A stretch of 58,959 nt of DNA from a virus. Its lineage: Duplodnaviria > Heunggongvirae > Uroviricota > Caudoviricetes. Both the position numbers and the translations under genes were made by a program. The stretch lies in the IMG/VR virus record IMGVR_UViG_2541047708_000006; one strand, 5' to 3'. Shown here piece after piece: positions 2,689-44,526 of the stretch (its first letter is position 1; the number at the start of each line of letters is the position of its first letter). The notes beneath the pieces were generated by a model that saw only the letters and a program-made list of their open reading frames with translations, was not told the origin of the DNA and ran no database searches.

Positions 2689-3296
2689 TTAACACGTAAA
2701 ATCGGTAACGGCTGGAAATCATTCAATACTCGCACTATCGGAAGTTCACCAGCCAACCGCAGCACGTTCTTGCATACGACGTGTCTGCGGTTTTTCAACC
2801 ATTTAGATACAGCACTCTCATCGCATTCATTCTTCCGCATTAAAGTATATATGACCATATCACCTTAATATTTTTCTTCTTCAGATAAAAATTGTTATCT
2901 ATGTATACTTTTAAACCGAATCCGTGTAGAGTCTCTACCTAAGTTAGTTCACAGTTACCCCTTCAGTTTGCGCCATTAACCTCCTGACTTTTGCCGCTAT
3001 CTGTAAGCATTCCTGTATACCTGAAACTACAGGGGTCATCTACGAACTTTAAGAACACCCAGGATAAAAATTGTCAACTATATTATATATAACACCATAC
3101 TAATTCGAGGTTATATGAACAGCATACTGATAATCACTTCACTACTTATCATATTCAGCATTTTTGGTCATGCTCTAATAAAATTAGGGATTGGCATATC
3201 CAATAACCCGGACAAAACCGATGTATAAGTCAACATATCCTTAATCAGACATACAATATTGCAATGAAAACCAATAATATTTTAAGGAATATCTTC

Positions 3297-3530
3297 ATGA
3301 AATCAAAAGACACCCTAAAGTGGTTCCCTGCGCAGCTTCCTGAAGTCAGAATTATCCTGGGAGATGCTGTCGTGGAAGTAGCAAAACAGGGAAGACCTAT
3401 CAATACCAGAACATTGCTTGATTACATTGAAGGAAACATAAAGAAAAAGTCATGGCTGGATAACAAAGAATTATTACAAACAGCGATATCAGTTCTTAAA
3501 GACAACCAAAATTTAAATGGTAAAGTGTAA
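3297..3530 (+). CDS. YdfK/YnaE-like small protein
   Basis: MKSKDTLKWFPAQLPEVRIILGDAVVEV... resembles recalled prophage proteins YdfK/YnaE that sit next to pin in Qin/Rac; RBS AAGGAA before ATG 3297. Confidence 0.7.
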   Translation: MKSKDTLKWFPAQLPEVRIILGDAVVEVAKQGRPINTRTLLDYIEGNIKKKSWLDNKELLQTAISVLKDNQNLNGKV

Positions 3531-38906: not shown

Positions 38907-39138
38907 TAAGCAAAAAAGCTCCCGAAGGAGCCTTCATTTTCACTTTCTTAAATCTAACGACAGATGGCTAACATTTAAGTATTGTGAAATATTATCAAAT
39001 GTAATCATCATTGATTTACAAAAGATACATTTTGCCCCGAAAGGATTTCTGTCAGAAACATCAAAAGATGATGTTCTATACTGAGAACCATGGCAACACG
39101 GGCATCTAAAGTGAATATGGTTTGTAATATTTTCTACC

Positions 39139-39351
39139 TCAAAGTGCCACTACATGAACAGCTGCAGGGCCTTTAGGTCCGTTCTCAATACCAAATTCGA
39201 CTTCCTGATTCTCAGTTAACGTTTTGAAATCGTTGCTCTGAATAGCTGAGAAATGCACAAACACATCTTTGCTACCATCTTTCGGCGTGATGAAACCAAA
39301 ACCTTTTTCAGGGTTAAACCATTTCACTAAACCAGTCATTTTGTTAGACAT
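39139..39351 (-). CDS. Cold-shock protein (CspA family)
   Basis: [19 protein letters not shown]...[11 protein letters not shown] motifs. Confidence 0.9.
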
Positions 39352-39714
39352 CATTATTACCTTTTGAAGAAGTTAGCCCTTGGGCAGAATGGTCCGAAAA
39401 AAAATATCAGAGAGAAAAACCAACAAGAAAATCTCAAGAGGTACAAATAATAAAATTATAACAATGACTGCTTCAGATAATTTTGTAACAAACCAGAACA
39501 CCATTAACGCATGATTAACCAACCATAGCAAGGATTACTTTTGTAAAGAAAAACACACGAATGAAACAATAGCTTTATTTATTAATAAAACGTGTCATTC
39601 TGTCTAATGACCTTTTATCTTACCCTTAAGATTTCAAGGATTTTGACTCATGGAAGAGTCCTTTTTATTTAAATTTCACATTCAGCGCTAAAAATAATCC
39701 GATTTAATATTAAT

Positions 39715-41116: not shown

Positions 41117-41636
41117 CTTCAATGCAATAATCGTAAAACGCCGCAAACTGCTCATCGCGGCGTTTTTTTTCATCTTCAGAAGGGATCAGCACCGACAATT
41201 TTTTATTCAGATCAGCGACGCTGCCCTCCAGTTTTTCAATGGGCGATTCAATATCATCTTTTTCTGACCGCAATGCCGTCGGTGGCGTCTTCAGAGAACC
41301 AGTAATTCTTCCCGGTAGCTTTCCTTTGTAGGTTATCCACACATTCTGCGCCTCTAAAATTATGGGGCGCTTTTCCGGCGACTGCTCATCCCCTACACAT
41401 AACCCGGCAGCAACATCCAGGAATACCTGTCTGATTCTCATTCTGGCTGCTGCCTCATAAAACTCCAGCGCGGCACCTTCAACACGGTCCAGCGAGATGT
41501 CCAGGTCAAAAATTTCACCGTCAAAGCGTTTTTTGTCCCGTAAGGCTACAGTTACCGCCACTTTATTCTCAAAATTGCGGACTCCTTTCACAACCAGTTC
41601 ATAGTCTTGTGTCATTGGATTACTCTCTTCTCGCAA
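41064..41636 (-). CDS. Hypothetical protein between holin and endolysin
   Basis: 190 aa ORF translationally coupled to holin. Confidence 0.6.
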
Positions 41637-41835
41637 CCTTACGCCTGTCTTCTTTAATCTTGAAATAAAGGTTTGTCAGATACGTCAGCAGGCCAAAAAC
41701 CAGACTACCCAGCACACCGATTGCAGCCCACTGTGACGGAGTTACTTTATCGAGTAACTGCAATGCCCAGAAACCAGCATTACCAGCCGATGTGCCATAG
41801 GCGATACCTGTTGTTAACTTATCCATTGATTTCAT
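41620..41835 (-). CDS. S: Holin
   Basis: 71 aa, two hydrophobic helices and charged C-terminus; first gene of lysis cassette. Confidence 0.8.
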
Positions 41836-42053
41836 ATCCTCACCCCGATGTACACAGATGGTGCAATATGTTTGAAAAGATCGGAGTCTATGGGTTAGTT
41901 TTTATAGCAAACGTTGTTCTCAACGGCGCTAAAAAACAGACACATTAAAAATGTGGGTAATTATTTTAAAAGAAAATCATATATTAAATAATAATACGAG
42001 ATATGTTTTCATATTTAGTGTACTGTATACGGCCATTTATACAGGAAAAGCCT

Positions 42054-42224
42054 ATGTCAGAACGTAAAGACTCAAAATCACGCCGTAATTATCTCGTTAA
42101 ATGTTCCTGCCCAAACTGCACCCAAGAGTCAGAACACAGTTTTTCAAGAGTACAAAAAGGTGCCCTTTTGATCTGCCCTCATTGCAACAAAGTATTCCAG
42201 ACAAATCTTAAAGCTGTAGCTTGA
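42054..42224 (+). CDS. Small zinc-ribbon protein
   Basis: Two CxxC pairs (CPNC...CPHC); RBS before ATG 42054. Confidence 0.5.
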   Translation: MSERKDSKSRRNYLVKCSCPNCTQESEHSFSRVQKGALLICPHCNKVFQTNLKAVA

Positions 42225-42286: not shown

Positions 42287-42312
42287 AAACCCGCCTGAGC
42301 GGGTTTAATATT
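42287..42312. terminator. Bidirectional rho-independent terminator
   Basis: AAACCCGC-CTGA-GCGGGTTT flanked by A-run and T-run. Confidence 0.6.
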
Positions 42313-42587
42313 GTGGTACTTTTTGTGGGAGTCATCCACTTACGCACTTTGTTTTGCTATGCCAGCAGTTAGCTTCTGCTGTAAAACTATTCATGCAGCA
42401 AACCTGCACTTCACCACAATGGTTAGCATACTTTTCCTGATTAAGTTATTGCCAAATATGCTGGCCATTGTTTCATGTATTGGACCTCCTTACTATTTAT
42501 TAAAGAGATCCAATATTCACCACTCTGTCTGTATCTCCACTCAGGCATCAGCCTTCTTCGTTATCGTATACAGACAAACTATGAATT

Positions 42588-42803
42588 TTAATCAGTAATT
42601 ATGACATTTGCTGCTGCAGGACCTTTAGCACCACTCTCTACAGAGAAGGTAACCTTTTGACCTTCAAATAAGGTTCGAAAATTATCATTCTGAATCGCAG
42701 AAAAATGCACAAACACATCTTTACTACCATCAACAGGAGAAATAAAGCCAAAACCTTTATCAGCGTTAAACCATTTTACTAAACCAGTCATTTTATTTGA
42801 CAT
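42588..42803 (-). CDS. Cold-shock protein (CspA family)
   Basis: [21 protein letters not shown]... Confidence 0.9.
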
Positions 42804-43103
42804 TCTACATTCCTTAACTTGAGCCTTTCGGCATAAATGGCTTGTATAACAGAAACGACTTCGTACTTAATTGGAGAGACTCAAAGAAGGAATAAGTGAA
42901 TAACACCTGAAATGAGAACTGCTTTAGTAAACTACTTCGTATATCGTCTGTTCTTCAAACCGACGCAATCATTAACGCATAGTTGAACATATGAAGCAAT
43001 GTTTATTTTAGACATCCAGCCATCTTCAACCCCATCAAAAAACTATAGCTTTCTTCAGGAACGTGTGTATAGTGCGCCCAGTTATCAGTATTAAGGAATT
43101 TTT

Positions 43104-43316
43104 TTGTCCCGTAAAATGACAGGAATTGTCAAAACCTTTGACGGCAAAAGCGGCAAGGGTCTTATCACCCCATCCGATGGTCGTATCGATGTCCAGCTTC
43201 ATGTTTCAGCGCTCAATCTCCGCGATGCAGAAGAAATTACCACCGGATTACGCGTGGAATTTTGCCGGATAAATGGTCTGCGTGGCCCTTCAGCTGCCAA
43301 TGTTTACCTTTCATGA
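43104..43316 (+). CDS. Cold-shock-domain protein (divergent)
   Basis: [23 protein letters not shown]...; CSD-like but lacks canonical RNP motifs. Confidence 0.85.
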
Positions 43317-43599
43317 GCTATATTAAAGCTTTAATTTCAGGCCCCATCGAATCAAACATGGAGAGTTTTCATGAATAACCCCGTCTGTCTTGATGACTGG
43401 TTGATTGGCTTTAAAAGCTTATGCTGTACTTTGACCGTAATAGCTCTGCTAATAATGTAATATGCAGACTCATTGTATCTAGGGACATAGTACTGGAAGA
43501 AAACATTTTAAACATCAGGCAAAGTCACCCGATAAATAATAAGTAAACAAACATGAATCCCGGAATGAGATTCAACATCTCTATTACCCTATTTAAAGC

Positions 43600-43630
43600 A
43601 CAAAAACCCGCTCATCAGCGGGTTTTCTAC
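43600..43630 (-). terminator. Candidate tR' terminator downstream of late promoter
   Basis: AAACCCGCTGATGAGCGGGTTT plus T-run on minus strand, about 40 nt after candidate pR'. Confidence 0.55.
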
Positions 43631-43661
43631 TTTTTCTTAACGTCGGGTATATAAAGCCCAT

Positions 43662-43690
43662 CGTTGAAAAAATTTTATCCATATTTTTTG
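43662..43690 (-). promoter_or_regulatory. Candidate late promoter pR' (-35 TTGCAT, 17 bp spacer, -10 TAAAAT)
   Basis: Read on minus strand immediately downstream of Q. Confidence 0.5.
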
Positions 43691-43731
43691 AAAAATGCAA
43701 GCATTACGTCGCCATCTTCGGCGAAAATCAT

Positions 43732-44526
43732 TTATCTCGTCACTTTTCTTAATTGCACCTCAGCATATGCTTCTTCCTGCCAGCACTTTGTAACCAGTTT
43801 ATCAATGACATCTGCATATCCTTTGTACCACTGATAATCAGTCAGGTCTGGTACCAGCTTCTGGACATGACACCGCGCCAGTGTCGTTGGTAAACGACTA
43901 AACCGGTTTCCATTGCAACGCCCACAAATCTTATAAACAGGCGCGCCATGAAGCCGGGTCCTTTTTTCATCCAGGACAATACCTTTACCCTTACACCCTC
44001 TGCACGCTGTGCTGACTTCTCCCTTACCATGACAATGCTGACATAGTTCCTTCACCCACTCTTCCTTGATAACAGACTCCCCGCTTCTGGAGTATTCCAC
44101 CACTTCGCGCAATACATTATGAAATCCAGTACCAGCACAAGGCTCACAGCGAGCCTTACTTGCCGCAGACCTGGAATAATCAGCAAAGGCAAAACTCACA
44201 AGGTAAGGGATGATCTGTAACCGGATTTCTTCACTCAATTTGTTCAATGTCGGGTTATCCAGTGCCATCGCGTAATTGAGCAGACCTTCAATCGCAAACT
44301 GAGGATCCTGAACGCCAGCTTTTGCCAGGAATAAGGCAAACCCAAGCGGTGCTTTCGACTGCACCATCCCCTGCGCAGCCATCACATCCGTAATCGTTAA
44401 ACCACCTGAGCCTGTCGCCGGTGCGGCATCACTCAATTTTGGAGATTTTGGGGAGTAATATTTTGGTAAGGCTTCAAGGTTCATGCTCGTTCTCCACTTA
44501 CGCCAGTACGCCAATTGCCAGCGCAC
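43732..44526 (-). CDS. Q: Late-gene antiterminator Q (zinc-finger type)
   Basis: 264 aa with Cys clusters (CEPCAGTG..., CQHCHGKG..., CRGCKGKG, CGRCNG); precedes pR' and lysis genes. Confidence 0.85.
   Translation of the reverse strand: MRWQLAYWRKWRTSMNLEALPKYYSPKSPKLSDAAPATGSGGLTITDVMAAQGMVQSKAPLGFALFLAKAGVQDPQFAIEGLLNYAMALDNPTLNKLSEEIRLQIIPYLVSFAFADYSRSAASKARCEPCAGTGFHNVLREVVEYSRSGESVIKEEWVKELCQHCHGKGEVSTACRGCKGKGIVLDEKRTRLHGAPVYKICGRCNGNRFSRLPTTLARCHVQKLVPDLTDYQWYKGYADVIDKLVTKCWQEEAYAEVQLRKVTR

Follow-up and report, generated by a model that had tools for sequence, protein, structure and literature searches.

Sequence elements and distribution of a probable Q-lambda-type late-gene control module in a lambdoid prophage

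Introduction

In a 58,959-nucleotide (nt) stretch of viral DNA (Caudoviricetes, IMG/VR record IMGVR_UViG_2541047708_000006; hereafter the window, to which all positions refer), a gene for a Q antiterminator of the YdfT/QuuQ type is followed on the minus strand by a late promoter, pR', and by an intrinsic terminator, tR'. The first of the lysis genes, encoding a phage-21-type holin, lies further downstream on the same strand. The original prediction had read positions 43,600 to 44,526 as a compact late-control module, in which a near-consensus promoter, followed within about 40 nt by a strong terminator, would give rise to a very short constitutive transcript subject to Q-dependent antitermination. 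Here, we describe (i) the gene, promoter, pause element and terminator that make up this module; (ii) its distribution among related phages and prophages; and (iii) the structure predicted for the short RNA. The coordinates of the features are collected in Table 1.

Table 1. Features of the late-control module and of the region downstream of it
Feature	Positions	Strand	Basis
Q antiterminator gene, YdfT/QuuQ type, 250 amino acids (aa)	43732..44484	minus	PF03589; BLASTP with lambda Q; PDB matches
pR' -35 hexamer, TTGCAT	43695..43700	minus	3/6 match to TTGACA; TTG invariant among relatives
pR' spacer, 17 nt, TTTTCAAAAAATATGGA, carrying the candidate Q-binding element	43678..43694	minus	Conservation; alignment to lambda
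pR' -10 hexamer, TAAAAT	43672..43677	minus	5/6 match; TA...T invariant among relatives
Predicted start site (43665) and sigma-dependent pause element AACGAT (+1..+6), then discriminator-like GGG	43657..43665	minus	Identity to lambda
Predicted 5'-terminal RNA hairpin (+1..+27), AACG/CGUU and UGGG/CCCG pairs	43639..43665	minus	Minimum free energy fold
A-rich single-stranded linker (AAGAAAAAGUAG...)	43627..43638	minus	Fold; sequence varies among relatives
tR' intrinsic terminator, stem AAAACCCGCU / AGCGGGUUUU, loop GAUG, then U5-GUGCUUU	43598..43626	minus	Fold; SfV annotation
Weak second hairpin downstream of tR'	43554..43574	minus	-9.1 kcal/mol, z -1.9; significance doubtful
Strong terminator after the cspB-like moron	42287..42306	minus	-15.4 kcal/mol, z -6.2
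First late (lysis) gene, phage-21-type holin	41620..41835	minus	PF04971, E = 7e-34

Results

The Q gene and its product

The Q reading frame runs from ATG 44484 to TAA 43734-43732 on the minus strand (250 codons), and its product matches the Pfam family PF03589 ('Antiterm') with E = 1.3e-52. PF03589 is the Q-lambda family, which is separate from the Q21 (PF06530) and Q82 (PF06323) families (Yin et al., PMC9388147). In a BLASTP comparison, lambda Q and the window protein were 34% identical over the full length (E = 2e-40), with a 48-residue gap on the lambda side, and the window protein also matched the solved Q-lambda chains PDB 7UBM (E = 1.4e-36), 4MO1 and 7UBJ. It is full length and contains all of the family-invariant residues. 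Judged from these matches, the gene upstream of the promoter is a genuine antiterminator of the Q-lambda family.

The start codon at ATG 44484 is preceded by GGAG at 6-7 nt and aligns with Met1 of lambda Q; it yields a coding sequence of 753 nt, equal in length to phage 2H10 gp48 and K-12 ydfT. We therefore place the start of Q here and not at GTG 44526, at which the mechanically called open reading frame (ORF) begins. A DUF968/HNH gene, which precedes Q on the minus strand, ends at 44498.

Relative to lambda Q, the window protein contains an insertion of about 48 aa (residues ~117-164) inside the zinc-ribbon 'arm', and this insertion holds extra zinc-finger motifs of the DnaJ type, CxxCxGxG (PF00684, E = 8.4e-8). 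In lambda Q, the arm contacts positions 11-13 of the Q-binding element (QBE) as well as sigma region 4. In the distant relatives L018-L020, the arm insertion is longer still than in the window protein.

Promoter and candidate Q-binding site

The -35 hexamer of pR' begins about 30 nt past the Q stop codon, on the same strand as Q. While the promoter TTGCAT-17-TAAAAT is indeed present at 43700-43672, its description as near-consensus did not hold, as only eight of the 12 hexamer positions agree with the consensus. The promoter aligns without gaps to both lambda pR' and P22 pR', sharing with them the 17-nt spacer and the 6-nt gap between the -10 hexamer and the pause element, and 11 of the 17 spacer bases are identical to those of lambda pR'.

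Two sub-sites within the spacer, TCAA (43691-43688, -26 to -23) and TG(G) (43681-43679, -16 to -14), lie 10 bp apart on the minus strand; across 48 distinct sequences of the clade, TCAA and TG are constant and the bases in between are variable. The lambda QBE is 13 bp long and is contacted at positions 1-4 and 11-13 (PMC9388147). As the TCAA...TG(G) geometry fits these contacts, we infer by analogy with lambda that it is a candidate Q-binding site. A CII-type paQ box (TTGC-N6-TTGC) was not found antisense within Q.

Pause element

Exactly 6 nt (TTTTTC) past the -10 hexamer, the minus strand reads AACGATGGG at 43665-43657, which matches lambda pR' from +1 to +9 exactly, in both sequence and register. 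For lambda pR', AACGAT at +1 to +6 and the GGG have been documented (PMC4005639), and P22 also shares AACGAT and the GGG with the window. A search of the 59-kb window for the composite pattern TTG-N20-TANNNT-N6-AAYGATGGG gave this single match, compared with an expectation of 0.01. Judged by its sequence, this pause element, which the original prediction did not mention, is the decisive feature that raises the module above chance.

An AUG at +5 to +7 of the transcript (from AACGAUG) opens a 22-codon frame, MGFIYPTLRKSRKPADERVFVL (43595-43661, minus strand), the UAA of which lies just past the terminator. We rejected this frame as coding: it has no Shine-Dalgarno sequence, it reads MG-stop in lambda, and it is frame-shifted in K-12.

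Terminator and length of the terminated RNA

The tR' hairpin has the DNA sequence AAAACCCGCT-GATG-AGCGGGTTTTT (43626-43602, minus strand), and as RNA it reads AAAACCCGCU-GAUG-AGCGGGUUUUU, followed by GUGCUUU. It consists of a GC core (43622-43607) and a U tract (43606-43602), and the predicted 3' end of the RNA is at about 43602-43598. Its folding energy is -18.1 kcal/mol (z = -6.1), a stability that none of 200 shuffled sequences reached; for the 69 nt starting at 43665, the value is -25.3 kcal/mol (z = -5.0). The stem starts about 40 nt after the predicted start site, and the strong terminator that had been proposed at this distance from the promoter was confirmed at the level of the fold.

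A terminator scan reported tR' on the plus strand only, because the U tract was absorbed into the stem. Being symmetric, the hairpin could also stop plus-strand transcription arriving from the cspF side. The SfV record carries the annotation 'putative rho-independent terminator' at the equivalent position, and nearly all relatives have a terminator there, formed by at least eight different GC-rich stem sequences at the same distance. This exchange of hairpins at a fixed distance points to selection on terminator function rather than on sequence.

The unmodified transcript of the window is predicted to be ~64-68 nt long. Among relatives (L004-L100, L182-L190), the predicted RNA end lies at +54 to +71, mostly at +63 to +68, despite terminator turnover and a varying linker. 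The protein-alignment locus search gave the closest 80 loci only; the more distant Q diversity was sampled by tblastn of the phage collection. In P22, ES18, mEp237, Fels-1, Erwinia EhrS_59, Klebsiella RAH1, Yersinia YeP1 and Proteus Brookers, all eight terminators would yield an RNA of ~55-71 nt, and in mEp515, the ninth phage sampled, no promoter or pause element was recognisable directly after Q. On these sequences, a short pR' RNA of 54-71 nt appears to be the rule in the Q-lambda family, and the 194-nt 6S RNA of lambda the outlier. Short terminated late-promoter RNAs were already known for phages 21, phi80, 82 and P22, as cited in PMC7547250. Thus, the very short transcript originally proposed is indeed predicted, at ~64-68 nt, but its compactness is unremarkable, being the norm for the Q family. 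The near-constant length could reflect a spacing constraint, imposed either by Q loading or by the RNA, though we regard it as suggestive only.

Relatives and distribution

Escherichia phage 2H10 carries the pR'-tR' segment without any difference (100% identity), and versions with 82-92% identity are present in PhiR42_1, HannyBb, Tritos, SfV, mEp460, Ayreon and fifteen Stx2c-converting phages. The module is present in 1957 of 5426 complete E. coli genomes. The copy in the K-12 Qin prophage, downstream of ydfT (quuQ), has 94% identity, and the gene order there (ydfU, ydfT, cspF, cspB, ynfU, holin) is that of the window. Furthermore, the same architecture extends over at least eight enterobacterial genera, with loci from Escherichia, Shigella, Mangrovibacter, Kosakonia, Phytobacter, Atlantibacter, Scandinavium and Buttiauxella and a Q identity of 63-95%.

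The 48 distinct clade sequences show no variation in TTG of the -35 hexamer, TCAA at -26 to -23, TG at -16/-15, TA...T of the -10 hexamer, and AA..AT.GG in the pause element; the intervening bases vary. Such a pattern is expected if selection acts on a sigma-70 promoter, on a bipartite Q site and on a sigma-dependent pause element, and the constant bases are those critical for function. In K-12 Qin, SfV, 2H10 and the Stx2c phages, only Q is annotated ('antitermination protein'), together with the terminator in SfV, and our literature search on quuQ/ydfT pR' found no paper describing the promoter or the pause element.

Several relatives depart from the common arrangement. In one group (L032-L035, L038, L062), Q is 96% identical to the window protein and the control region is degraded, with ATTGTA, CAAAGA replacing the -10 hexamer, and AATGATGAG; this group is without the 5' hairpin described below and has a weak terminator. 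It probably represents a decaying or re-specified pR'. A hybrid was seen in L047 (IMGVR_UViG_2565956633_000004, ~3290-3400), in which Q, -35 hexamer, spacer and -10 hexamer of the window type are fused exactly at AACGATGGG to the lambda 6S leader. Late-control modules appear to recombine at the pause element that they have in common. In the Stx2c phage LC727882 (L182, 3501-6870), Q is 96% identical, and downstream of the same pR'/pause/tR' module come a lipoprotein-like ORF, a DNA methylase gene and tRNA-Met/tRNA-Arg, with the toxin genes beyond the stretch examined. From this gene order, the module would head the late region that carries stx2c in the Stx2c phages.

A hairpin at the 5' end of the RNA

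The first bases of the window transcript are predicted to be paired: the probability that nt 1-4 are in a helix is 0.94, compared with 0.22 in shuffled sequences. In most leaders of the Q-lambda family, the first 4-5 transcribed bases, which belong to the pause element, likewise pair with their complement 13-25 nt downstream, forming a hairpin from +1. The arms are AACGA/UCGUU in lambda (L001, 885-908), P22 (L184), mEp237 and Brookers, AAGGA/UUCUU in YeP1 and AAUCA/UGAUU in Fels-1; the arm pairs differ between clades, AAUG/CGUU being among them (loci including L185, L186, L189 and L190).

Alignment of diverse family members with MAFFT, followed by RNAalifold, did not yield a consensus structure, as the leaders have loops of different length and the alignment failed to match their 3' arms. 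For the diverse leaders, this approach was replaced by folding each sequence against its shuffles, by which the 5' hairpin was dominant in 12 of 17 leaders (pairing probability 0.72-0.94, shuffles 0.19-0.38). It was not favoured in ES18, EhrS_59, RAH1 and L009, where other folds were preferred. In 28 relatives from the clade of the window, 94.6% of the hairpin cells were paired. The pairing count in the clade revealed zero double compensatory changes, the variation being one-sided and wobble-compatible, and a column-shuffle control gave the same value as that observed; single mutants that break a pair of the hairpin also exist (AAAGAT, AACAAT). A search of Rfam with the short RNA detected no family at gathering thresholds or by E-value scan, and returned only sub-threshold resemblances of leader-like or terminator-like kind. 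No description of the 5' hairpin was found in the literature searched. We consider the recurrence of the hairpin to be suggestive only.

The late region and the surroundings of the module

The holin gene lies 1.83 kb downstream of the predicted start site. Past it, ORFs of the size of lysozyme, Rz and terminase genes follow on the same strand. The lysis, terminase, head and tail regions of the window are complete and 97-98% identical to deposited phage genomes, and the head and tail regions match lambda-like phages. On the way to the holin, a Q-modified polymerase must also pass the terminator behind the cspB-like gene (Table 1).

A cspF-like gene (43104-43316) is encoded on the plus strand, convergent with the late transcript. 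Two cspA-type thermoregulators (Rfam RF01766) lie on the minus strand at 42525-42964 (156 bits) and 39093-39509 (107 bits); they precede the cspB-like and cspI-like cold-shock genes of the late region, morons with cold-responsive 5' untranslated regions of their own. Two further small ORFs are found on the plus strand, antisense to the late transcript. One of these (42003-42224) encodes a YnfU-like zinc-binding protein (CxxC...CxxC); the other (43421-43546, 41 aa) lies downstream of cspF, and its K-12 equivalent is annotated as a 29-aa hypothetical protein. Q-modified transcription would pass head-on through both. Near the start of the window, a transfer-messenger RNA gene, ssrA, was identified at 698-1060 on the plus strand (Rfam RF00023, 295.8 bits), which suggests a lambdoid prophage at the ssrA attachment site.

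Discussion

We observe a Q homologue, promoter and pause elements in the register of lambda pR', a terminator fold, a gene order that leads into late genes, and conservation of the whole. On this basis, the module is very probably a Q-lambda-type late-gene control cassette of a lambdoid prophage. That the arrangement is the one expected for Q-dependent antitermination, as had been proposed, is supported by the identity of Q, the register of the promoter, the terminator, the late genes downstream and the conservation among relatives.

By homology to lambda and P22, from which we infer where transcription starts and Q binds as well as the pause and the Q-dependent readthrough, the module would work as follows. 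On the minus strand, host sigma-70 RNA polymerase would initiate near 43665 at a moderate promoter, and sigma region 2 would then rebind the -10-like AACGAT on the non-template strand, so that the polymerase would pause in the mid-teens. When Q is absent, the polymerase would escape and terminate at tR', leaving only the short RNA, and the lysis and morphogenesis genes would be silent. As Q builds up after induction, it would bind between the -35 and -10 hexamers, probably at TCAA...TGG, and load onto the paused complex, making it resistant to terminators. The modified polymerase would then read through tR', antisense over cspF and past the cspB terminator (42306-42287) into the holin gene and the late operon.

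Several observations weigh against this reading. The -35 hexamer is weak, and hexamers of the quality found in pR' are common by chance and prove little alone. A generic promoter scan did not list pR', because with 8/12 matches it falls short of the 9/12 threshold of the scan; we judge that the miss reflects this threshold rather than the lack of a promoter, and pR' draws its credibility from position and conservation. The -35-like element beside the pause element reads TTTTTT in the window, which agrees with the TTGACT of lambda at only three of six positions, and relatives have TTTTCC or TTCTCC there. In lambda, TTGACT upstream of the pause element docks sigma region 4, which is repositioned during Q loading (PMC9388147); this element is accessory in lambda and not universal. 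Nor does the window fit T-N-Y-G, the consensus for the scrunched paused state, which is located at +14 to +17 in lambda (PMC9191641): it reads ATAT at these positions, and its nearest fit, as in K-12, is TATA at +15 to +18, where most relatives have TATG, the G at +18 being present in SfV and the Stx2c type. Furthermore, the 48-aa insertion lies in the arm of Q that contacts DNA and sigma, so the details of loading may differ. Finally, the K-12 Term-seq supplements list no 3' end at the predicted tR', and the one 3' end that they show in this region is Rho-dependent and lies antisense to ydfT; as these lists are possibly incomplete, we treated them as uninformative. The absence of the -35-like element and of T-N-Y-G, together with the larger arm of Q, suggests quantitative differences in pausing and loading rather than a system of another kind.

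It might be argued that the hairpin at 43626-43603 mainly terminates the convergent plus-strand unit (cspF and the small ORF downstream of it) and that the promoter-like hexamers are coincidental. The terminator scan did list the hairpin on that strand, where it folds at -14.1 kcal/mol with the tail UUUUCUACUUUUU, and transcription from the cspF side converges on it. However, in relatives that have no cspF (SfV, the Stx2c phages, P22, mEp237, YeP1 and ES18), the same promoter and pause element are still followed by a terminator, which ends 54-71 nt further on. Moreover, the minus strand has the better U tract. While a dual, bidirectional role of the hairpin is plausible, an exclusive role on the plus strand is not, and we regard this explanation as extremely improbable. 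It is also very unlikely, if slightly less so, that the prophage is decaying and that the module, though recognisable, is a relic without any remaining control function. The same module does reside in the cryptic Qin prophage of K-12, some relatives whose Q is 96% identical (the L032/L033/L038 group) show degradation of both promoter and pause element, and the window copy does not have the TNYG pause consensus. Yet the pR'-tR' segment is the same, base for base, as that of a deposited phage genome (2H10), all critical bases of the promoter and of the sigma-dependent pause element are intact, Q retains its full length and its family-invariant residues, and the lysis and structural regions are likewise complete and close to those of deposited phages.

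A further proposal, which adds to the Q-lambda-type cassette rather than replacing it, is that the ~66-nt pR' RNA is itself functional and not just a by-product of antitermination, acting in trans as a small RNA in the manner of StxS or stabilising the late mRNA from its 5' end. StxS sets a precedent, in that pR'-tR' transcripts can be Hfq-binding regulators (PMC7547250), and the pR' RNA has the architecture of a small RNA, with its 5' hairpin, A-rich (ARN-like) linker and terminator with a U tail. The prevalence of the hairpin over shuffles in 12 of the 17 diverse members, and the retention of RNA length in the face of terminator turnover, point in the same direction. On the other hand, the linker, which would be the seed of a functional RNA, is poorly conserved, and the U tail is short (five U in the window, four in K-12). 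The clade provides zero double compensatory changes and a pairing level that column shuffling reproduces, the hairpin is disfavoured in four of the leaders folded (ES18, EhrS_59, RAH1 and L009), no Rfam family was matched, and the constant length could instead be a spacing requirement for Q loading. On balance, we think a function of this RNA unlikely, and the same degree of doubt applies to the more general notion that the pR' leader of Q-lambda phages is a selected structured RNA, Hfq-dependent in trans, or one that stabilises or licenses the long late mRNA. If it were true, such an RNA would be a very widespread prophage RNA, encoded in about one-third of E. coli genomes, including K-12 with its Qin prophage.

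We conclude that the module is an uncharacterised yet typical member of the textbook Q-lambda cassette family, extremely common in E. coli. It is the form of the textbook Q/pR'/tR' switch that is commonest in E. coli, and as a discovery it carries little weight. Its practical value is that promoter, pause element, candidate Q-binding site and terminator of the YdfT/QuuQ type can now be given to the base. In the Stx2c phages, the module lies upstream of the toxin region and would control toxin expression there.

Comparison with known systems

The module resembles the Q/pR'/qut/tR' system of lambda in its PF03589-type Q, in its TTG-type -35 hexamer, 17-nt spacer, TAAAWT -10 hexamer and 6-nt gap followed by AACGATGGG at +1 to +9, and in having an intrinsic terminator ahead of the lysis genes. 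Unlike lambda, the window is predicted to produce an RNA of ~66 nt rather than the 194-nt 6S RNA; it has neither the TTGACT -35-like element nor TNYG at +14 to +17; its Q contains the 48-aa zinc-finger insertion in the arm; and 1.8 kb of morons (cspF in antisense orientation, and cspB with its thermoregulator and terminator) separate tR' from the holin gene.

The gene 23/late promoter system of P22 is similar in that it combines a Q-lambda-family antiterminator with a lambda-like promoter and AACGAT, and it is equally compact, the P22 terminator ending at about +59; a short late-promoter RNA of P22 is among those cited in PMC7547250 as known. It differs in that the P22 promoter is near-identical to that of lambda, including TTGACT both as -35 hexamer and as -35-like element, in that gene 23 is without the zinc insertion, and in that the P22 holin gene follows within ~0.4 kb.

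StxS of the Stx1/Stx2a phages, a 74-nt Hfq-binding RNA that RNase E cuts from a longer precursor (PMC7547250), has the origin that is predicted for the window RNA, namely constitutive transcription from pR' that stops at tR' in the lysogen. Otherwise, the likeness of the window RNA to StxS is limited to predicted architecture (5' hairpin, A-rich linker, terminator).

The closest systems are the ydfT-cspF-cspB-essQ region of K-12 Qin and the Q regions of SfV and the Stx2c phages, which are direct orthologues (Q 93-96% identical, pR'-tR' 83-94% identical) and show no difference in kind; in the Stx2c phages, the same module lies upstream of the methylase gene, the tRNA genes and the toxin region.

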